This document shows positions 11,912 through 23,023 of a DNA stretch of 64,000 bases, piece after piece. The first letter of the stretch is position 1. Each line of letters opens with the position of its first letter. Under the pieces are notes generated by a model. That model searched no databases. It was not told the DNA's origin and saw nothing but the letters and a program-made list of their open reading frames with translations. Made by a program: the position numbers and the translations under genes. The DNA is taken from the NCBI GenBank assembly GCA_902774035.1, contig CACYHA010000016.1:798-64797 (forward strand), written 5' to 3'. The DNA is from Oscillospiraceae bacterium. GTDB taxonomy: Bacteria; Bacillota; Clostridia; Oscillospirales; Acutalibacteraceae.

Positions 11912-11955
11912 CGGCTGTAACAAGGCGTGTGCTTTGTTGCGGCCGTTTTTTATTT
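11912..11955 (+). terminator. Intrinsic terminator between the repeat and the surface-protein gene
   Basis: 15-bp stem CGGCTGTAACAAGGC / GCTTTGTTGCGGCCG (3 G-U pairs), loop GTGT, then TTTTTTATTT. Confidence 0.7.
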
Positions 11956-12002
11956 CAAAACCACTGCCTGGGCGCATAAGCAGGCAAAAAGGAGGTAACC
12001 TT

Positions 12003-14783
12003 ATGCAAAAAACTATCATCCGTAAACCCATCAGCATCCTGCTTTCGCTGCTGCTGGTGCTGTCCGTCTTCGGCGGCATGGCGTTCACCGCTTCCGCGGT
12101 CGCTACCGGCACATATGGCAACGCGACCTGGACGCTGGACGACGACGGCCTTATGACCGTGTCCGGCACCGGCGAGTTTGCGCCGGAATTTGATTACGAC
12201 TTTGGCACGCAAATCAAGTCTGTTGTGATCGGCGACGGCATTTCTGGAATCGGCGATTTAACTTTCGACAACTGCATAAACATGGAGTCCGTTGAAATTG
12301 GCAACGGCATAACAGAGATCCCGACTAAGGAATTCATGAATGCCTCGAGCCTGACAAGCGTAAAGCTTGGCAAGAACGTGCGCTCCATTGGTGCCAATAA
12401 CAGTTATTTTACGAACCTTTTGACTCGGACCGAGACCGATGAGACCGGTTATACGGTATCTGTCGAAGGTTTTCTGAAGGGCACCGGCAACTATGCCGGC
12501 CAGATGTTCAAGGCAGTTGTGAAAAAGAACGGCGAAGTCGTTCCCGGCCCGTTTCTGATGAAGTGGTCAGTGGTTACGAATTATTCTAGCGCTACTTCTA
12601 TGAATGCTCGTGCATCGAGACCAACGCCGTACTATGCAACCACCAGCGATCCGCTTTATGATTATGGCCCTTATGGTTATGCTCACTCTCGGATTCACAC
12701 GTTGAAATGCGACGTTTTCCGCGTTACCGAAGACGGCAAAGGTATTGAAAAACTCTGTTCCGGTTCAAAATCCGGCCTGATCAATTATAATGATGACCGG
12801 TCTTCTTGGACTAATAATGAATTGGAAAATTCAACCGCCTTCATTTCCACGTTTCTTTTTGTCGGCAACACCTCAGACTACTTAAAGAGCACGATCGGCA
12901 AAGCGGGATTTGCCCATGTGGATTGTAATAAAGTCTATATCACCTTTACGAACAACCTGACGCCAGCCGCCCAACAGGTCCTGCGCGTGGAAAACAGCAC
13001 TAACGGAAGGTTTGTAGCGATTGCCCCCGGCATTGCTGATGTTACCTATACCATCTATACAAGCGGATGCGAAGCGCACCAAACGCAGTTTACAGCCGCC
13101 CAACCCCGGACCGCGGGTATCAGATATATCGTGTTGCGCAAGCCGACCGTGACACCCGCAGCCAGAGAACTGACCTTTAATTTCCCCGAACTGCCCGACC
13201 TCGGCGACAGCGAGCTGACCATTACATTGAACGGCGAAACCAAGACCGTGACGGCTGCCAACAGCACCGTGAAATTCACCGGTCTGAATCCCGAATCGAA
13301 CTATCCCTACACCCTGTTGGCAGGCAACGCGGAAAGAGGCTACGCGTATGCGGACGACAACGCCGCAACGCTTCCCGCCCCGCCGCACGAACACAGCTTC
13401 AACTATGCTGCTGAGGGTGCGACCCTGACCGCCACCTGCCGGAACGCAGACTGCGATCTGCCGGCCGGCGCCGTTTCCTTCACGATCAACGCCCCCGAAA
13501 AGACCACGTACAACGACGGCAAAACCGCAGCCGCAACGCTCACCGATGATGTTGCCGCGTTCAACGAAGCCACCAGCGAAGCCACCGGCAAAACCGTTTC
13601 TGCCGCCGACATCGAGTATTACGAGGGCGACCAGCAGCTTGACGCCGCCCCCGTAAACGCCGGCACCTATCAGGCGCGCATCACCGTGGAAGACGCGACC
13701 GCCGTTGTGGAATACACCATTGCCAAAGCCGACCCGGCTTATACCGAACCCAGCCTGACTGCCACCTACGGCGACACGCTGGGAAGCATTGAACTGCCCA
13801 CAGGCTGGAGATGGAAAGACAGCAGCACCTCCGTCGGCAATGTTGGCGAAAAGACCTTCAAAGCGACCTTCACTCCGACCGACACCGAGAACTACAACAC
13901 CGTGGAAGACATCGACGTGACCGTGATCGTCGGCAAGGCGATCCCGGATTATCAGATCCCGAATCTGACCGCAACCGTGGGCGACACGCTGGCCGATGTG
14001 ACCCTGCCCGACGGCTGGAGATGGAAAGACGACAGCGAACCTGTTGGCGCTGTTGGCAAAAAGAGCTTCAAGGCGACCTTCACGCCCGAAGACACCGACA
14101 ACTTCCTTGTGATGGAAGACATCGACGTGACCGTGAATGTCGGCAAAGCCATCCCGAGCTATGAGGCCCCGAGCCTGACCGCCACCTACGGCGACACGCT
14201 GGCTGATGTGACCCTGCCCGACGCCGAAAACGGCACCTGGAGATGGAAAGACGACACCGAACCTGTTGGCGCGGTTGGCGAAAACAGCCGCATCGCCGTG
14301 TTCACCCCCAACGACACCGACACTTATGCCGAGGTGGAAGTGCCTGTGAGGGTCACCGTCGGCAAAGCGACCCTGAACGTTGACGCTCCCACCGGTCTGA
14401 CCGCAACCGAAGGCGACACCCTTGCAAGCGTGACTCTGCCCGAAGGCTGGAGCTGGAAAGACAACAGCGAATCCGTCGGCGCAGCCGGTGAAAAGACCTT
14501 CAAGGCCACCTTCACGCCCGCCGACACCGCAAACTACAACACTGTGGAAAACATCGACGTCACTGTGACCGTCAAGGCTGCAACGCCGGATACCCCGGAC
14601 ACACCCGACACACCTGACACGCCGGATACACCCGACACCCCGGATACTCCCGCGAAGGGCGACTTCCGCTGCGGTTTCTGCGACGCTTACGAGCGTTGGA
14701 AGGATACGCCGATGGTCGGCTGGATCGTCAGCCTGATCCACATCTTTGTCCACCTTGCCGCCCATGTCGGCGAAACGACCTGA
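12003..14783 (+). CDS. Secreted surface protein: BspA-type LRR region, four 70-aa tandem repeats, (TPD)7 linker, His-containing hydrophobic tail
   Basis: Start MQKTIIRKP with a GGAGG RBS at 11991 and a signal peptide. LRR_5-like segment DGISGIGDLTFDNCINMESVEIG. Repeats ..LTATYGDTL..LP.GWRWKD..FKATFTP.DT.NY.. span 13740-14582. Confidence 0.85.
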   Translation: MQKTIIRKPISILLSLLLVLSVFGGMAFTASAVATGTYGNATWTLDDDGLMTVSGTGEFAPEFDYDFGTQIKSVVIGDGISGIGDLTFDNCINMESVEIGNGITEIPTKEFMNASSLTSVKLGKNVRSIGANNSYFTNLLTRTETDETGYTVSVEGFLKGTGNYAGQMFKAVVKKNGEVVPGPFLMKWSVVTNYSSATSMNARASRPTPYYATTSDPLYDYGPYGYAHSRIHTLKCDVFRVTEDGKGIEKLCSGSKSGLINYNDDRSSWTNNELENSTAFISTFLFVGNTSDYLKSTIGKAGFAHVDCNKVYITFTNNLTPAAQQVLRVENSTNGRFVAIAPGIADVTYTIYTSGCEAHQTQFTAAQPRTAGIRYIVLRKPTVTPAARELTFNFPELPDLGDSELTITLNGETKTVTAANSTVKFTGLNPESNYPYTLLAGNAERGYAYADDNAATLPAPPHEHSFNYAAEGATLTATCRNADCDLPAGAVSFTINAPEKTTYNDGKTAAATLTDDVAAFNEATSEATGKTVSAADIEYYEGDQQLDAAPVNAGTYQARITVEDATAVVEYTIAKADPAYTEPSLTATYGDTLGSIELPTGWRWKDSSTSVGNVGEKTFKATFTPTDTENYNTVEDIDVTVIVGKAIPDYQIPNLTATVGDTLADVTLPDGWRWKDDSEPVGAVGKKSFKATFTPEDTDNFLVMEDIDVTVNVGKAIPSYEAPSLTATYGDTLADVTLPDAENGTWRWKDDTEPVGAVGENSRIAVFTPNDTDTYAEVEVPVRVTVGKATLNVDAPTGLTATEGDTLASVTLPEGWSWKDNSESVGAAGEKTFKATFTPADTANYNTVENIDVTVTVKAATPDTPDTPDTPDTPDTPDTPDTPAKGDFRCGFCDAYERWKDTPMVGWIVSLIHIFVHLAAHVGETT

Positions 14784-15086: not shown

Positions 15087-15899
15087 TCAGTGCCCGATCG
15101 CCTTCTTCGCTGCCGTGCGGAAGGCGGTGTATTTCTTTTCGGGAATCGGCAAAACGGTGCCGTCGGTCAGCGTCAACTCGAAGCGGCGGATGTTGCGCAA
15201 AAAATGCGGGTTGATCAGATAGCTCTGGTGACAGCGTAAAAATAAGTGGGAATACTGCTTTTCCAGCGACGCGACAGTGGCCATGATCTCCACTGTATCA
15301 TTGACCGTGTGCAGGATGCTGTGCTTGCCGCCGGAGGCCGCCTCGATCCAGTAGATCGAATCGGAAAGATAAAAGTAGTCCGACCGATCCAGCCCGTGAA
15401 AGTGGATGCGCTCGCCCTGCTGCGGCAGCGCGTTGGAACCGGCGTAGACCTGGCTGAAGTTTGTGGGATAGATCACGTCGTCCTCATGCTTACCGTGGGG
15501 ATTGGAGATGTGGCAGACCAGAATGCGCGGCACCTTATGCACGTTGCCGGCTTCATCCATCTCTTTGCGCTCGCACCAGCAGAGCAGAAGCCGCTGATAG
15601 ACCGAAAGGTCGTGCCCGTCAGGGTAATGCGTTACAACCGAGTAAGTCAGCATCACATTGCAGAACGACGGGTGCGCACTGGCGTGCACCACCTTCAGGT
15701 TGCCCATGGTGAAACGCAGATTGTGCTCCTCTGCGCCCCATACGCGCAGCATGGTTTCCCGCCCGCGCAAAAACTGCCCTTCAGCCGGACCGTACCACAG
15801 CGCGTCGTCGTCCATGCTTTGCAGAAACGGCAGGTAGTCGTTCTCATAATAGCGAATGATTAATTCCGCCGAGCGGTCGGCTATTTCGTTCTGAATCAT
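15087..15899 (-). CDS. One-component LytTR-family DNA-binding regulator with an NTF2/SnoaL-like N-terminal domain
   Basis: Start MIQNEIADR after a GGAGGTGG RBS. C-terminus ..[38 protein letters not shown].. is a LytTR domain. No receiver domain. Confidence 0.8.
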
Positions 15900-15991
15900 G
15901 CTTCGCCACCTCCTATCAGGGATATTATAACGCAAAGCAAAGGCAAAATCAAGCTGTTTTCGCATGTTTGCAAGTCATATCTGAAAAAGTA

Positions 15992-16019
15992 TTGCAATTT
16001 TCCGGAGGGTCCGTATAAT
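15992..16019 (+). promoter_or_regulatory. Promoter of the ubiquitin-LRR gene
   Basis: TTGCAA-N16-TATAAT, about 60 nt upstream of the AAAGGAG RBS and start at 16080. Confidence 0.55.
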
Positions 16020-16079
16020 AAGCGTGTAAGAAACAACTGCAGAGTTTCACACCCCCGATCACAACATCTGAAAAGGAGT

Positions 16080-17738
16080 ATGAACATGAAAAACATCAAA
16101 ACAAAACTGACCGCTATTCTGCTGGCCCTCGTCCTGCTGCTCTCGGCACTGCCGATGTTCGCGTTTGCAGAGAATCCGGGCCTGCCTTCGCTCCCCGGTC
16201 ACGGGCAGAGCGGCAACCAGCCCGAGATGCCGGGAAGCGGCGGCCTCAAAGGCGACACCGAGCCGGACAAACCCGACATCAACGGCGGCACGTCCAATTA
16301 TGTCAACAACACCTCTATGCAGATTTTCGTGCGCACGCTGACCGGCAAAACGCTCACGCTTGAAACGGTGCCGAACGACACGATCGAAAACATCAAGCAG
16401 AAGATCCAGGAAAAAGAAGGCATTCCGCCCGATCAGCAGCGGCTGATCTTCAACGGCACGCAGCTGGAAGACGGCAGAACGCTCGCCGACTACAACATTC
16501 AAAAGGAAAGCACCCTGCATCTGGCGCTGCGCATTCGCGGCGAGATCGGATTCACCGAAGCGAACTTCCCCGACGCAAACCTTCGTGAATTTGTCAAAAC
16601 CTTCGACACCGACGGCAGCGGTACGCTCAGTGCGGACGAGTGCGCCGTCGTGACCGAGATCGACACCTGGTCTGCGCGCGTCGCCGTGACCGACTATACC
16701 GGCATCGAATGGTTCCCGAATCTGAAAGCGCTGAAGTGTATGCCGACGAGTGGCACCATTCACTTGGACGTCAGCGCCAACACCGCGCTGGAGATTCTTC
16801 ACAGCCGCAGCAACGCACTCGCATCACTTGACCTCAGCGACAATCCCGCGATGAAAGACATCGACCTCTATAATGCGCCTCTTTCCTCGATTGACGTTTC
16901 CGCTTGTCCCGCGCTCGAGAAGCTGCACGTCGGCGAAACCGGGATCCAGACGCTCGACCTCAGCGGCAATCCCGTGCTGAAGACGCTCTATTGCTTCGGC
17001 AACGGGATGCAGACGCTCGATCTCAGCGCCAACCCCTTGTTGAAGCGTTTGATTTGCAGCAACAATCTTTTCAAAACGCTCGATCTCCACTTGAACACTG
17101 CGCTGGAGGTGCTGGAAGGCTACGGATGTTCTTTTGAAACGCTCGACCTCAGCGGCAATCCCTCGCTGAGACATCTGAGTATTGAAGAGTGCACCTCTTT
17201 GTCAGAGCTGGATATCTCTGCTAATCCGCTGCTGAAAAGTGCCGTTGAAGACGGAAACAAAAGGGCTTTTGAAGATTATTTTGAATATAGGTTGTACAGA
17301 AACACCCAGATAGAGGCATTCCTCAGCTGCACAAATACGGTCCAGCTGATCACCGACAGCCTTACAGTGCGCTGCGACGCCAACGGCGGCAGCGGTTCAC
17401 AGACGATTCTTGTTCGCCAGAATGAAAACCTGATTTTGCCGGACTGCGGTCTGACCGCGCCCGAAGGCAAAGAGTTCGACGGCTGGCAGCTCGGCAACGC
17501 GGCCTATCAGCCCGGCGACGAGATCGCGCTGTCGGAAAACACGACCCTGACCGCGCTTTGGAAAGACGCGAGCGCGCAGCCCGAACCGACGACTGCGCCG
17601 CAGGACGGCACAAGTGACCCGGTGTCTTCCAACCTTTGCAAATGGGACAACGTCGATCACGGCACCTCTTTCTTCGGCAGACTGATCGCGTTCTTCCATT
17701 CCGTTCTCTACACGATCACGCACATCTTCAAGCGCTGA
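16080..17738 (+). CDS. Secreted protein: signal peptide, Gly/Pro linker, ubiquitin domain, about 22-aa LRRs, Listeria-Bacteroides-type repeat, His-containing hydrophobic tail
   Basis: 552 aa. Signal peptide ..[12 protein letters not shown] units LDLSGNPxLKxLxCxxNxxxTLDLS. [21 protein letters not shown] repeat domain. Confidence 0.9.
16317..16544 (+). other. Eukaryote-type ubiquitin domain (residues 80-155 of the ORF)
   Basis: [76 protein letters not shown]. 62/76 identical to canonical ubiquitin in a hand alignment with no gaps. Confidence 0.9.
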
Positions 17739-17925
17739 GAACATCAAAAACCGGCCCGTCGAAATCGCTCGGCGGGCTGTTGTTATTTGACCCTTTTGCC
17801 ACTTCGCAGCTTATAAAACAGAAAGGGAAACGGTGGTGAAAATCGCGGACGGCGACTTGAATTCAGACAAATCATTCTGTATAATAGAAGCGGTACGAAA
17901 AAAACAAATCACCAAAGGAGCCGCC

Positions 17926-18102
17926 ATGACCCAACAAGACTGGGAGCAGCTTTCTCCCGACGAAAAGAAAAAAGAGCTGTACCTCAAACAAGTTCGCCTG
18001 CTGGATACGTTCCTTGAACATGGCGCGATTTCGCAGGCGCAGTACGACAAGAGTTTCCGTGACCTGACAGAAAAGATGGAGATGCAGAATGTCAAAGAAT
18101 AA
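17926..18102 (+). CDS. Small SHOCT-like helical protein (58 aa)
   Basis: MTQQDWEQLSPDEKKKELYLKQVRLLDTFLEHGAISQAQYDKSF.. AAAGGAG RBS 6 nt upstream. Confidence 0.5.
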   Translation: MTQQDWEQLSPDEKKKELYLKQVRLLDTFLEHGAISQAQYDKSFRDLTEKMEMQNVKE

Positions 18103-18286
18103 TGCGCACTGGATCCGGCACACACACCTGTTCTCTGCGGACGAGTATGAATGCTCGGCCTGCAGCATGACCGTGGACAAGCCGAAACCGACCTGCCCGC
18201 ACTGCGGCGCGTCGATGGGCGGCGAGAAATACGACCCGTCGTGGGTCGATGAAGCCGCGATGATGGATATTATTCTTGGAGAATAA
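18089..18286 (+). CDS. Zinc-ribbon protein (65 aa)
   Basis: C-S-A-C ... C-P-H-C pairs. Overlaps the previous ORF by 14 nt. GGAGATG RBS. Confidence 0.55.
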   Translation: MSKNNAHWIRHTHLFSADEYECSACSMTVDKPKPTCPHCGASMGGEKYDPSWVDEAAMMDIILGE

Positions 18287-18299
18287 CGAGGTGAAACAT

Positions 18300-18701
18300 A
18301 TGCGTTTCAGACACACCAACCGCTGCGGGTTTCTGCTCGGCTTTATCGACTTCTTCAGCGCCGGATTGTTCTTCCTGCTCTATATGCCCTTCGGCGGTTT
18401 GCAGGCGGAACTGGAAGCAGTGCTCGGCCACAAGGTGCGTCTCTACTGGCAGGCCTATCTGCTCGGCATCCCGACACTGTTCGTCTATACACTGGTTTGG
18501 ATGGCGCGAATCGCGGAGGAGCTGAAAGTGAAAGCTGTCGCGCTTGGCGTGGAGGGGCCGTACACCTCATGGTGGCACATGTTCGGCTGGAACATCTTCG
18601 GTATGCTGCTGTGCGGCCCGATGGTCGCCACACACCGGTTCTTCGTCACGCTGAACAAAGTGGAAAAGAAACTGAACGAGCAGATGTCCACAGAGGAATA
18701 A
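18300..18701 (+). CDS. Membrane protein (3 TM, DUF4234-like)
   Basis: Start MRFRHTN after a GAGGTG RBS. Hydrophobic segments FLLGFIDFFSAGLFFLLYM, LLGIPTLFVYTLVWMA and IFGMLLCGPMVA. Confidence 0.6.
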   Translation: MRFRHTNRCGFLLGFIDFFSAGLFFLLYMPFGGLQAELEAVLGHKVRLYWQAYLLGIPTLFVYTLVWMARIAEELKVKAVALGVEGPYTSWWHMFGWNIFGMLLCGPMVATHRFFVTLNKVEKKLNEQMSTEE

Positions 18702-19762: not shown

Positions 19763-20053
19763 GTGACGATGGGAGACGCGATCATCCGCCGCACACTGCG
19801 CTTCACCGGCTGGGTGCAGGGCGTCGGTTTTCGCTGGCGGGCGATCCACGCCGCAAACGCGGTCGGCGCAACCGGCTGGGTCTGCAACAACTTCGACGGC
19901 TCCGTCTCTATGGAGATCCAGGGTACAGAGGAGCAGATCGACCAGGTGATCCTCGCTATTGAACGCGGGACGTATGTCAGGATTGAGAACATGCAAGTAA
20001 GGACGATCCCGGTAGTGGATGGAGAGCGGTCGTTTGTTGCGACGGAAGGATAG
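19763..20053 (+). CDS. acyP: Acylphosphatase
   Basis: ..FTGWVQGVGFRW..A...G..GWV.N..DGSV..EIQG.. signature. 96 aa (or 94 from the second Met). Confidence 0.85.
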   Translation: MTMGDAIIRRTLRFTGWVQGVGFRWRAIHAANAVGATGWVCNNFDGSVSMEIQGTEEQIDQVILAIERGTYVRIENMQVRTIPVVDGERSFVATEG

Positions 20054-20138
20054 GGTTATTCTAACGTAAATAATGTATAAGACTCAACAAACTGAATATA
20101 CTATCAAACTGAATAAATGGATATGAGGTACAATAAAA

Positions 20139-20747
20139 ATGCTTGATGATCAGAACCCCACAAATGAAGAATATTATAGAAGGTATTGGAGATTGTCAAA
20201 TACTCTTTCCGATACAATTGTTTTGATTGTTTTTTTAGAGAAGATTGAAGAATACCAAGCTGATATTACGACTCACAATGGGAATGAATACTATGCCATT
20301 AAAAGAGCTCTTTTAGTTCTATGTCAAGTTATTAAAGAAAGAATAATACTGAATATTTGTAAAATGTGTTCCGATGAAGGTGAAGATGTAAACAGCTTGC
20401 CAAAGCTTGGAAGTTATTTAAGAGGATTAGATCAACCTATTGAAGCAAGAGCAGGTTTTTCTGCATTGCTTAATCACCGCCTTCAAGAGCTTACTGATGC
20501 ACGAAACGGTTTTATTGCGCATGATTTATTGTCACACCAAGAACCAACTTTAAGAAATTTCATTCAAAAAGTTAAAGAAATAGTAGACGAGATAACGCGA
20601 ATATTTAATGGCTTGTGTTATAAAGAATTGGATTACAGAGTTTCTGAGTTTGATGATAAAACAGAGGATTTGTTTGAAAACACATTTGGCTTAGGCTTTG
20701 AAACAATAATTCAAAAAAGCTTTGACATTGAGCAAAGCAATGATTAA
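20139..20747 (+). CDS. HEPN-like (AbiU2-like) protein in an AT-rich islet
   Basis: 202 aa, visibly AT-rich codons. LTDARNGFIAHD fits the HEPN R-x(4-6)-H motif in the RN..aH form I recall for AbiU2. Confidence 0.45.
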   Translation: MLDDQNPTNEEYYRRYWRLSNTLSDTIVLIVFLEKIEEYQADITTHNGNEYYAIKRALLVLCQVIKERIILNICKMCSDEGEDVNSLPKLGSYLRGLDQPIEARAGFSALLNHRLQELTDARNGFIAHDLLSHQEPTLRNFIQKVKEIVDEITRIFNGLCYKELDYRVSEFDDKTEDLFENTFGLGFETIIQKSFDIEQSND

Positions 20748-20767
20748 GGAATATCTAGCACTCAAAT

Positions 20768-20804
20768 GAAACAACCACGGCCTTTTCGGGTCGTGGTTGT
20801 TTTC
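20768..20804. terminator. Bidirectional terminator
   Basis: GAAACAACCACG-N12-CGTGGTTGTTTT hairpin between convergent ORFs. Confidence 0.7.
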
Positions 20805-21585: not shown

Positions 21586-21635
21586 GTAGAAAAACGAATG
21601 GAGCGTGAAAAGAATGATTGACGGATGTTGTAACC

Positions 21636-21779
21636 GTGGAAGACATCATGGAAATGCTGCATATCGGCAGAACGACCGTCTATGAGCTTTTGAAAAGCGG
21701 CACCCTCTATTCCGTAAAAATCGGTAAAAAGTATATCGTTCCGAAACAGAGCGTTGTCAATTTTATCACCGCAAAATAA
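21636..21779 (+). CDS. Excisionase-type helix-turn-helix protein (47 aa, start uncertain: TTG 21618, GTG 21636 or ATG 21648)
   Basis: VEDIMEMLHIGRTTVYELLKSGTLYSVKIGKKYIVPKQSVVNFITAK is typical of the HTH_17/excisionase family. Below the ORF-track cutoff. Confidence 0.7.
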   Translation: MEDIMEMLHIGRTTVYELLKSGTLYSVKIGKKYIVPKQSVVNFITAK

Positions 21780-21859
21780 GTCGCAGCTTTGACGCTGCAT
21801 TGCCCGCTGTGCTATAATCGGCACAGCGGGCTTCCGACCTTAGGAAGGAGTGAAGAAAC

Positions 21860-23023
21860 TTGGTTGGAAGCTTAGTTGTAAAAGGCAACAAATACTATGC
21901 AAAGTTTCGGATCGACGGAAAGCAAAAACTCGTCGCAACAGGCATTGACGCGAAAGGCAACAACAAGCGAAAGGCGCAAAAAGCCATGCAGGAGATCATA
22001 GAACGGTATGAGTCTCTGAATCTGGCCTATGAGCGGATCACCTTTGTTGGGTTTTTGGAGCTCTGGCTTCAAAGAATCCGGCCGATCCTAAAGCCTGCCA
22101 CATGGGAATCCTATGAGAAAACGGTCAAAGGAAAAATCAAACCGTATTTTGAAAAGAAAAACATCCTTCTGCGCGAGCTGAAGCCAAACGATCTCACAGA
22201 TTTCTTTTGCTATCTTGCCGCGAGCGGGAATTCGCACACGAAGGGCGGGCTCTGCTATAAAACGGTGAAAAACATCCGCGGCGTGATTTCCTCTGCCTGT
22301 GTGTATGCGGTTCAGAATCAATATATTCTTGAAAATCCGGCAACCAAAAGTCTGCTGCCGTCCTTCGCGCATTCGATTCAAAAGGACGTTCCGCAATATA
22401 CGTCCGAGGAAGCCTCAAAGCTCCTGTCCTTTGCGAAAGAACATGAGAGCCACATTTATATCTTTCTGCTGCTGGCGCTGTTCACCGGAATGCGGAAAGG
22501 GGAGCTTCTGGCATTGACCTGGGATGATATTGATTATGAAAAAAAGATGCTGCGCATCAACAAAAGCCGAACAGGCTGCAGAACCGAAGTGACGATGGCC
22601 GTTACAACGCCGAAAACGCTCAGTAGCAACCGCAATATCCCGCTCAGTGATTTTGTCCTTGCCGAACTCAAAGAGGAGCAAAAGCGGCAAAAACAGCAAG
22701 CGGCACTGTTTGGAAACTGCTATCATAAAGAGCAGGATTTTGTCATCCGTAATGCGCTCGGTGAACCGTATGCCAATCTGAGCGCCATCAATCGGGTGCT
22801 GAATCGGCTGGAGAAAAATGCAGGACTGCCGCACTGTACGATCCACGGTCTGCGCCATTCGGTGGCAAGCATTCTGGATGAAAACGGAGTCGCGCTGCAG
22901 GATATCTCCATACTGCTCGGACATGAAAGTGTTCTGACAACAGAAAAGATTTATATCCGCCGAAACAGGACAGCAAAGGCATCCACGATCAATGTTTTAG
23001 ACAGAACCGTCAAAGTATCCTAA
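21860..23023 (+). CDS. Tyrosine site-specific integrase
   Basis: 387 aa, TTG start after a GGAAGGAG RBS. C-terminal HGLRHS..LLGH..TTEKIY catalytic motifs. N-terminal AP2/SAM-like arm-binding region. Confidence 0.92.
   Translation: MVGSLVVKGNKYYAKFRIDGKQKLVATGIDAKGNNKRKAQKAMQEIIERYESLNLAYERITFVGFLELWLQRIRPILKPATWESYEKTVKGKIKPYFEKKNILLRELKPNDLTDFFCYLAASGNSHTKGGLCYKTVKNIRGVISSACVYAVQNQYILENPATKSLLPSFAHSIQKDVPQYTSEEASKLLSFAKEHESHIYIFLLLALFTGMRKGELLALTWDDIDYEKKMLRINKSRTGCRTEVTMAVTTPKTLSSNRNIPLSDFVLAELKEEQKRQKQQAALFGNCYHKEQDFVIRNALGEPYANLSAINRVLNRLEKNAGLPHCTIHGLRHSVASILDENGVALQDISILLGHESVLTTEKIYIRRNRTAKASTINVLDRTVKVS

Follow-up and report, generated by a model that had tools for sequence, protein, structure and literature searches.

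A near-eukaryotic ubiquitin domain carried in frame by an exported, internalin-like surface protein of a rumen Oscillospiraceae bacterium

We analyzed a 64,000-nucleotide stretch of DNA (hereafter the window) from an Oscillospiraceae bacterium (contig CACYHA010000016.1, positions 798 to 64,797, of assembly GCA_902774035.1) and examined one open reading frame (ORF) of 552 amino acids (16080-17738; positions are those of the window and features lie on the forward strand unless stated), identified by translation and Pfam matches as the gene of an exported ubiquitin-leucine-rich repeat (Ub-LRR) surface protein. We hold with high confidence that this ORF is a true gene on the chromosome of a rumen Ruminococcaceae/Oscillospiraceae bacterium, coding for an exported internalin-like surface protein into which a ubiquitin cassette is built in frame. 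An earlier note on the window, made from the letters alone, had drawn attention to the ubiquitin domain and proposed that it was acquired from a eukaryote.

The ubiquitin domain occupies residues 80-155 of the protein (16317-16544), and translation of this segment reproduced the 76 residues given in the earlier note. The ungapped identity to canonical ubiquitin was computed as 62/76 (81.6%), equal to the earlier hand count and not lower. The 14 differences are K6R, I13L, V17T, E18V, S20N, V26I, A28Q, D32E, A46N, K48T, S57A, V70A, L73I and G76E. L8, I44 and H68 were retained, as were R42, R72 and five of the seven lysines (K11, K27, K29, K33 and K63, not K6 and K48), with Ala at position 70; the kept residues and the changes at K6, K48, V70 and the GE tail were thus exactly as first described. 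The likeness goes well past what chance would give: the domain matched the Pfam ubiquitin profile PF00240 with 95.6 bits (cut-off 25.4; E = 1.4e-27), a profile check that the note had proposed, and matched ubiquitin chains of the PDB by phmmer at E of about 5e-38. In the AlphaFold2 (AF2) model, which had a mean predicted local distance difference test (pLDDT) score of 81, a beta-grasp was formed at residues 80-150, and Foldseek superposed the domain on crystal structures of ubiquitin with template-modeling (TM) scores of 0.92-0.99 and root-mean-square deviations of 0.4-1.1 Å.

The domain ends in RGE and not RGG, the tail LRIRGE running on directly into IGFTEANF. Because a free Gly-Gly is missing and the GE tail continues into the LRR region, the domain is predicted to be neither conjugatable nor cleavable at Gly-Gly, as the earlier description of a fused, non-cleavable ubiquitin had it, and would serve as a folded domain. 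No E1-, E2-, E3- or deubiquitinase (DUB)-type domain of a ubiquitin system was found in the neighboring genes within about 8 kb on either side, and no second ubiquitin was found within the window, the 949-residue protein encoded upstream being without a ubiquitin-like segment.

Eukaryotic contamination, or a chimeric assembly of a ubiquitin read with a bacterial LRR gene, would be the artefactual explanation of such an ORF, and ubiquitin contamination is indeed common: 21 of the 80 best matches in the genome scan described below were short poly-ubiquitin contigs. Against it, an orthologue with 95% identity (P0030) carries the identical fusion on four metagenome contigs (20-130 kb) that are independent of one another and keep the neighbors seen in the window (a BspA-like surface protein, a LytTR regulator, small ORFs, a MerR/TipAS regulator and an acylphosphatase), and related fusions are present in complete isolate genomes. 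The GC content at third codon positions (GC3) was 0.78 in the ubiquitin segment versus 0.73 in the remaining ORF, and the junctions on both sides of the domain are in frame. Bacterial expression signals were also recognized, namely a sigma-70-like promoter (15992-16019), identified by consensus match only, with TTGCAA, a 16-nt spacer and TATAAT (10 of 12 consensus positions) lying about 60 nt before the start codon, a ribosome-binding site AAAGGAG (16071-16077; sequence gaaaaggagtATG) 3 nt before the ATG at 16080, and an intrinsic terminator (17752-17789) with an 11-bp stem (eight G-C pairs) followed by a T-run that begins 14 nt past the stop codon. Because of the independent assemblies with conserved synteny, the host-like GC3, the expression signals and the in-frame junctions, contamination or chimerism is effectively excluded, and we regard an artefact as vanishingly improbable, in line with the opinion formed earlier that this is not contaminating eukaryotic DNA. 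By look-up the exact protein of the window was absent from protein records, where only the 95% orthologue is recorded. Ub-LRR proteins from many assemblies, labeled at most 'hypothetical', fell into clusters of 10, 18 and 38 sequences, and the nearest species representative for the ubiquitin domain in the genome scan was the rumen metagenome-assembled genome (MAG) Ruminococcaceae bacterium RUG13829 (L002).

The carrier protein begins with a Sec signal peptide (residues 1-30; 16080-16169) made up of a K-rich n-region with three K/R residues upstream of the core, a Leu-rich core with a hydrophobic-core score of 3.5, and a cleavage site between AFA and EN, assigned by hand with the -3/-1 rule; AF2 modeled a helix at residues 4-28. 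It is followed by a Gly/Pro-rich linker (residues 31-79; 16170-16316) with the motif GLKGDxxPDKPxINGG, predicted to be disordered (pLDDT <50 at residues 29-75) and forming the part that varies most between the window protein and P0030. After the ubiquitin, an LRR N-cap with an EF-hand-like loop (residues 168-188) leads into a 21-residue Cys-ladder LRR solenoid (residues ~156-392 with the cap; 16545-17255). The only sequence match of the LRR part in the PDB was Internalin-J (3bz5; E = 3.1e-30), Pfam gave LRR_4 and LRR_EndoS together with weak EF-hand matches, and Foldseek matched the model, which had a pLDDT >90 over the LRR, to InlJ and InlB at E of about 1e-12. The NCBIfam internalin_J model matched with E = 3.9e-18 and 65 bits, well under its cut-off of 1700. 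The next part (residues 393-496; 17256-17567) is a beta-rich B-repeat/Flg_new-like domain, placed by the beta strands of the model, by a Foldseek match to InlB 36-392 that spans internalin domain and B-repeat, and by a Flg_new match at residues 429-492 (E = 1.6e-5) that at 25.3 bits is slightly below the cut-off of 27.

The C-terminal end of the protein consists of a Pro/Thr/Asp-rich stalk with the motif LCKWDxxDHGTS (residues 497-530; 17568-17669), which has a pLDDT <50 at residues 501-526 and a motif kept in the homologues P0132, P0133 and P0135, and of a hydrophobic, His-containing helix ending in KR (residues 531-552; 17670-17735; helix at residues 531-551 in the AF2 model) that is a putative anchor or sorting signal. 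A tail of the same type closes the neighboring 949-residue surface protein and the paralogues without ubiquitin. No sorting-signal model of Pfam or NCBIfam matched the tail, and neither an LPXTG anchor nor a GW module was found in the Ub-LRR protein, the C-terminus being the hydrophobic helix. Since this hydrophobic helix ends in KR, attachment at the cell surface appears likelier for the protein than free secretion, and if the tail is an anchor, an internalin-like rod would carry the ubiquitin at its distal tip. The architecture given in the earlier note was therefore right in outline: the signal peptide, the Gly/Pro linker and the hydrophobic His-containing tail all reappeared in the prediction, and the Listeria-Bacteroides-type repeat was recovered, though just under the Flg_new threshold. 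The LRRs were also recovered, with a period of 21 residues (InlJ type) and about 8-9 clear repeats in place of about ten repeats of 22 residues. Sec export of the exoprotein was likewise upheld, its free release being the part against which the C-terminal helix argues.

How the ubiquitin came to sit in this protein could be followed among its relatives. A full-length query was dominated by eukaryotic poly-ubiquitin and returned only P0030, and the homologue search was repeated with residues 156-552 alone. This returned 445 LRR surface proteins from rumen and gut Clostridia and Bacteroidota, with dockerin, SLH or type IX secretion system (T9SS) modules. Of the 120 top-ranking homologues listed for this query, only the closest three (P0030, P0121, P0122) contained PF00240. 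P0132, P0133 and P0135, which have no ubiquitin, share the signal peptide, the GLKGDxxPDKPxINGG linker, the LRR and the C-terminal tail, their linker joining the LRR cap directly. Comparison with these proteins indicates that the ubiquitin is inserted as an in-frame cassette between the N-terminal linker and the LRR cap.

The DNA of L002 provided a breakpoint. Homology between the window and L002 (89.7%) begins at the LytTR gene, takes in the segments for signal peptide, linker and ubiquitin, and stops exactly at 16544, the last ubiquitin codon, to restart only in the tail at 17580-17709 (breakpoints L002:5228 and L002:5895-6024). The middle region has therefore been swapped, the LRR and B-repeat being replaced in L002 by an unrelated region of about 220 residues with no Pfam match. 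A further case came from the 949-residue BspA-type LRR_5 surface protein encoded upstream (11934-14783), which contains 70-residue tandem repeats (13754-14223) and a (TPD)n tract (14583-14652). Its orthologue in the sister strain L001 carries a diverged ubiquitin-like domain of 75 codons (L001:3073-3297) that shares 43% identity with the ubiquitin of the window protein (E = 9e-17), and this cassette is precisely absent from the window orthologue at about 13379-13381, a presence/absence polymorphism. The paralogues without ubiquitin, the L002 breakpoint and the L001 cassette polymorphism together argue for exchangeable ubiquitin-type modules in the surface proteins of this lineage.

The window protein belongs to a wider class. 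We scanned its ubiquitin domain against 185,579 species-representative genomes (GTDB), which gave at least 420 confirmed stretches, and examined the best 80. A hydrophobic signal peptide, ubiquitin and further protein were found in 47 of these 80, the remainder being the 21 short poly-ubiquitin contigs and 12 matches without an N-terminal extension. The 47 signal-peptide ubiquitins, the window protein and L001 formed a set of 49 proteins, in 40 of which a -3/-1 cleavage site immediately precedes Met1 of the ubiquitin. The downstream partners were dockerin (7), autotransporter beta-domain (5), Flg_new (5), LRR (4), SLH (3), SdrD_B (2), IPTL-CTERM (2) and choline-binding (1) modules. In the smallest forms ubiquitin was the sole cargo, on an autotransporter (L078; 414 residues), on a dockerin (L007; 168 residues) and on a Pro/Thr linker with an IPQTG sortase-like signal (L077; 148 residues), and in Dyella (L031; 108 residues) the signal peptide and ubiquitin stood alone. 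With a signal peptide, a ubiquitin at least 80% identical to the eukaryotic one, a surface/repeat module and host-matched codon usage, the window protein falls within the class, its atypical feature being the roughly 50 residues between the cleavage site and Met1 of the ubiquitin.

Carriers were labeled Bacillota, Actinomycetota, Verrucomicrobiota, Kiritimatiellia, Lentisphaeria, Bacteroidota, Fibrobacter, KSB1, Planctomycetota, Pseudomonadota and, in one case, a Methanothrix MAG. Cultured carriers included Paenibacillus sp. FA6, whose complete chromosome encodes a signal peptide-ubiquitin-immunoglobulin-like (Ig)-3xSLH protein, Dyella sp. OK004, Conexibacter sp. CPCC 206217 and the rumen type strain Ruminococcus albus 7. 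The R. albus 7 protein (WP_013483628.1; L082:5923-6663, equivalent to NC_014824.1 387760-388500) is encoded on the megaplasmid pRUMAL01 and combines a signal peptide (cleaved after TANA) and a ubiquitin 73.7% identical to the query with a C-terminal domain common to small secreted paralogues flanking it; RefSeq labels it only 'ubiquitin family protein', with automatic ubiquitination Gene Ontology (GO) terms. A dockerin protein and a transposase are encoded near this gene. The R. albus 7 gene was the only plasmid match apart from two weak Pseudoalteromonas Ig-like proteins. A phage vector for the ubiquitin was considered and rejected, with no match in 50,697 phage records. The signal peptide-ubiquitin layout was found in none of the 80 best IMG/VR matches, which were mostly giant-virus MAGs and in 67 of the 80 cases standalone ubiquitins. 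Tandem poly-ubiquitin contigs of 0.3-2.4 kb made up L018, L027, L032-L034, L041, L043-L045, L048, L053, L055, L061 and L063-L068; short poly-ubiquitin contigs of this kind in isolate or MAG records are most likely eukaryotic contamination.

The open-access literature, in which absence is not proof, yielded no account of fusions between ubiquitin and dockerin, autotransporter, SLH or LRR modules, and nothing on the R. albus ubiquitin. The architecture is thus not unique to the window protein, and beyond the Bacteroides fragilis ubiquitin (BfUbb) we found no description of the class in that literature. The earlier note had held that its finding would be refuted if the architecture were already widespread and characterised; widespread it is, in 47 of the 80 best matches, and of a characterisation we found no paper in that literature.

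The genes of the class are long resident and codon-adapted: the GC3 of the ubiquitin (0.14-0.95) tracks the GC content of the locus or genome (r = 0.91). In 1176 pairs the median proportion of synonymous differences (pS) was 0.85, which is saturated, against a median proportion of nonsynonymous differences (pN) of 0.087, and the ratio of nonsynonymous to synonymous rates (dN/dS, omega) was about 0.05 where computable and 0.056 between the window and L001. The identity to human ubiquitin over residues 1-72 had a median of 90% (range 82-99%), and L010, from the Methanothrix MAG, and L031, from Dyella sp. OK004, were identical to a eukaryotic ubiquitin repeat at 72/72 positions. L8, I44, H68, V70, K11, K27, K29, K33 and K63 were invariant or nearly so across the 49 proteins, and the variable positions were mostly those that vary in eukaryotes too (16, 19, 20, 22, 24, 28 and 57). 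The Gly-Gly tail decays, with G75 present in 30/49 and G76 in 15/49 (lost in 34/49). A near-invariant surface and set of lysines beside a decaying tail points to strong purifying selection on the ubiquitin fold and whole surface and not on conjugation.

The window ubiquitin falls in a rumen bacterial clade of 15 members, among them a ruminal Kiritimatiellia MAG, with the signature R6/I26/Q-or-S28/E32/A57. Members of this clade are mutually closer than they are to any sampled eukaryotic or giant-virus ubiquitin, and R6 occurred in 0/147 eukaryotic ubiquitin repeats. The window ubiquitin is a true homologue of ultimately eukaryotic type, and its immediate source was probably not a eukaryote but a bacterial pool. 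Of the acquisition from a eukaryote proposed earlier, the ultimate type stands, and direct acquisition by the window lineage is rejected on account of the rumen clade and of R6. The L010 ubiquitin is a Pelomyxa-type sequence (Q28, A57, S22) that hints at an amoebozoan-like source. An amoebozoan donor was not adopted: Pelomyxa shares these three residues with many bacterial copies, but they lie at variable positions and the sampling is tiny, which leaves them a hint only.

The nearest known system is BfUbb, described in the open-access literature as the sole bacterial counterpart of the eukaryotic protein. It carries a signal peptide, shares 63% identity with human ubiquitin, lacks Gly-Gly, forms a standalone mature protein of 76 residues and binds human E1 in vitro; later work showed it to be a toxin against bacteria, taken up through the SusCD transporter ButCD and directed at a periplasmic peptidyl-prolyl isomerase (PPIase) (PMC3352274, PMC5705921, PMC11467351). 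The BfUbb sequence that we used for comparison (PDB entries 8hm3/8ypt) was corroborated by 8hm3_A (166.7 bits) and by reproducing the published identity of 48/76 to human ubiquitin. Both BfUbb and the window protein derive from a bacterial gene for a eukaryotic-type ubiquitin with an N-terminal Sec signal peptide and no C-terminal Gly-Gly, and both have the Q28 and A57 of most bacterial signal-peptide ubiquitins. They differ in that the window domain is only 44/76 (58%) identical to BfUbb compared to 62/76 to human ubiquitin, and retains the core of the I44 patch, whereas BfUbb lacks L8, H68, V70 and K11. BfUbb is standalone and released, whereas the window ubiquitin is residues 80-155 of 552, followed by LRR, B-repeat and hydrophobic helix, and the BfUbb gene belongs to a low-GC island in the Gram-negative genus Bacteroides, whereas the window gene is codon-adapted in a host of the class Clostridia.

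Eukaryotic ubiquitin shares the fold and 62/76 residues with the window domain and is likewise encoded as an N-terminal fusion in its natural precursors. The window copy differs in lacking a free or cleavable Gly-Gly (GE), in K6R and K48T, and in its predicted Sec export and function as a domain and not a modifier; because it is exported by Sec, it would never meet an E1, E2 or E3 in its producer. In the carrier, the 21-residue Cys-ladder LRR is that of Listeria InlJ (PDB 3bz5), and the LRR and B-repeat are arranged as in InlB 36-392 (PDB 7pv9), these internalins also being surface proteins led by a signal peptide. The carrier departs from them in scoring below the NCBIfam cut-off, in having a hydrophobic helix in place of LPXTG or GW, and in belonging to a rumen commensal lineage, and we know of no described internalin with an N-terminal ubiquitin. 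Giant viruses, baculoviruses and entomopoxviruses also encode near-eukaryotic ubiquitin outside eukaryotic genomes, 79-85% identical to the window domain, but in the 80 best viral matches these ubiquitins are standalone or C-terminally extended and have no signal peptide, and they act inside eukaryotic cells. In the Ub-G76V reporters of the ubiquitin fusion degradation (UFD) pathway, an N-terminal ubiquitin with a mutated G76 is fused in frame in engineered cytosolic degradation substrates in eukaryotes, whereas the window fusion is natural, exported and bacterial, with Thr at position 48.

After export the signal peptide would be removed and the C-terminal helix would hold the protein at the cell surface, where the stalk and LRR rod would project the ubiquitin outward, away from the membrane. 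There the ubiquitin-binding proteins of eukaryotes that the bacterium meets, such as rumen ciliates, amoebae, other protists or host cells, would find in it a ligand or mimic, and the internalin-like LRR may provide a second eukaryote-directed binding surface. The reality of the gene, its architecture, the cassette insertion, the spread of the class and the constraint on the ubiquitin are shown by the data above; anchoring, exposure and a eukaryotic target are inferred. The mimic or ligand function is one we advance tentatively, as somewhat short of an even chance; when the identity of the protein and the mimic mechanism are blended into one explanation, we see that explanation as evenly poised. 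The host- or protist-directed mimic or decoy of the earlier note remains, by inference, the best-supported function, a direct eukaryotic source and a free exoprotein being the less likely parts of that reading. Speaking for mimicry are the same ubiquitin cargo on at least five unrelated anchoring systems, a constraint on bacterial ubiquitin that resembles the one in eukaryotes, and the internalin fold of the carrier, which belongs to a family that bacteria use to bind eukaryotic cells.

Several points weigh against this reading. Ubiquitin receptors are cytosolic, making a meeting place with surface ubiquitin doubtful. Few lineages in the set diverge as much as that of the window, with A46N, K48T and V70A all around the I44 patch, and a 50-residue linker precedes its ubiquitin, whereas most relatives have theirs at the very N-terminus. 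Arg and His are present in the C-terminal helix, which fits no sorting signal known to Pfam or NCBIfam. As the best 80 of at least 420 stretches were chosen by similarity, the conservation and dN/dS values are biased toward strong constraint and divergent, BfUbb-like copies are under-sampled, and many carrier loci come from MAGs and may be mislabeled taxonomically. Finally, BfUbb, the one bacterial ubiquitin that has been characterised, acts on bacteria and not on eukaryotes (PMC5705921, PMC11467351).

Two other functions must be set beside mimicry. The ubiquitin could have a purely physical role, as a stable, fast-folding and protease-resistant module that aids folding or solubility once exported, or serves as a spacer or cap and has no specific partner. 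Ubiquitin is extremely stable and a common solubility and expression fusion tag, it stands N-terminal to very different passenger and anchor domains in these proteins, its conjugation tail is dispensable, and rumen and soil are rich in proteases. A physical role leaves unexplained, however, why the domain stays 82-100% identical to eukaryotic ubiquitin at saturated synonymous divergence, with near-invariant surface lysines and I44 patch, when other beta-grasp domains hold their fold at 20-40% identity and the 43%-identical L001 cassette demonstrates that divergence is tolerated in this very lineage. The minimal forms, moreover, have ubiquitin as sole cargo and nothing else to fold, and in the window protein the disordered linker in front of the ubiquitin means that it is not a cap; we consider this explanation unlikely. 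A BfUbb-like weapon against other bacteria, in which the ubiquitin targets a protein of a competitor and the LRR and anchor provide delivery or contact, appears to us a little less probable again. BfUbb, the sole characterised secreted bacterial ubiquitin, is antibacterial (PMC5705921, PMC11467351) and has the signal peptide and Gly-Gly loss in common with the window protein (PMC3352274), Q28 and A57 extend the likeness to most bacterial signal-peptide ubiquitins, the rumen is a dense and competitive community, and the strain-swapped middle region recalls polymorphic toxin loci. Yet the window ubiquitin is far nearer to human ubiquitin than to BfUbb (62/76 versus 44/76), BfUbb lacks four residues (L8, H68, V70, K11) that are near-invariant in the signal-peptide class, which suggests a different constraint, no immunity-like gene or toxin domain was seen adjoining the gene, and the carriers, being Gram-positive, keep the protein anchored on their own cells.

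Release of a pro-protein by eukaryotic DUBs, which would cut after the ubiquitin in the cytosol and free the downstream domain as happens to natural ubiquitin-fusion precursors, is suggested by the RGG followed by more protein in 15/49 relatives, including P0121 and P0122, the closest Ub-LRR paralogues. The window protein has G76E and most relatives lack G75 or G76, and substitutions of G76 such as G76V block DUB cleavage. With no delivery system into the host cytosol, and with downstream modules that are bacterial surface anchors, we judge this route highly improbable. The function that we prefer is display of the ubiquitin to eukaryotic ubiquitin-binding proteins, for which it would be a ligand or mimic.

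The remaining genes around the Ub-LRR gene were also annotated. Divergent from it lies the gene of a LytTR-family regulator (15087-15965, reverse strand; Pfam LytTR, E = 3.4e-13), found at the same position in L001 and L002. The 949-residue surface protein ends in a Cys/Trp-containing and hydrophobic, His-containing C-terminal tail without a Pfam or NCBIfam sorting-signal match. Directly downstream of the Ub-LRR gene, three small ORFs of 89, 65 and 141 amino acids (17833-18701) recur in L001; none has a confident assignment to a Pfam family, and the 141-residue product resembles a membrane protein. Relative to L001 the window contains a 724-bp AT-rich insertion (20047-20769; GC about 0.3) with a 202-residue ORF that gave a weak, below-cut-off match to HEPN_AbiU2, beyond which (21618-23023) lie an excisionase-like helix-turn-helix (HTH) ORF and a phage-type integrase. 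This arrangement points to a probable integrative element some 2.3 kb past the Ub-LRR gene, at the position where L001 has HIRAN and ADP-ribosylglycohydrolase genes instead.

Many prokaryotes thus encode a Sec-exported ubiquitin that has long stayed nearly unchanged, always placed for outward showing. It is conceivable, although we hold it with more doubt than the mimic function itself, that surface display of a non-conjugatable, near-unaltered eukaryotic ubiquitin is a widespread strategy, spanning at least nine bacterial phyla and at least one methanogen and at least five independently recruited anchors, by which ubiquitin recognition of protist predators or animal hosts is engaged. On this same doubtful footing, uptake, phagosome fate or attachment, for example, would be altered, the window protein would be a rumen-specific version coupled to an internalin, and the cassette would circulate among bacteria as a mobile in-frame module. 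Anchored ubiquitin is in any case a testable cross-phylum phenomenon, uncharacterised in the open-access literature apart from the BfUbb toxin, and the cultured carriers (R. albus 7, Paenibacillus sp. FA6, Dyella sp. OK004 and Conexibacter) make experiments feasible. Ubiquitin on the surface of abundant gut and rumen bacteria bears on anti-ubiquitin immune cross-reactivity, and bacterial ubiquitin bears on the reading of 'ubiquitin' peptides in metaproteomes. Ubiquitin is thought to be conserved for its intracellular eukaryotic partners, and its presence under comparable constraint in organisms without them makes the question of what constrains its surface testable anew. Exported ubiquitin may also mark a general interface of bacteria with protists or hosts, across the rumen, the gut, soil and water.

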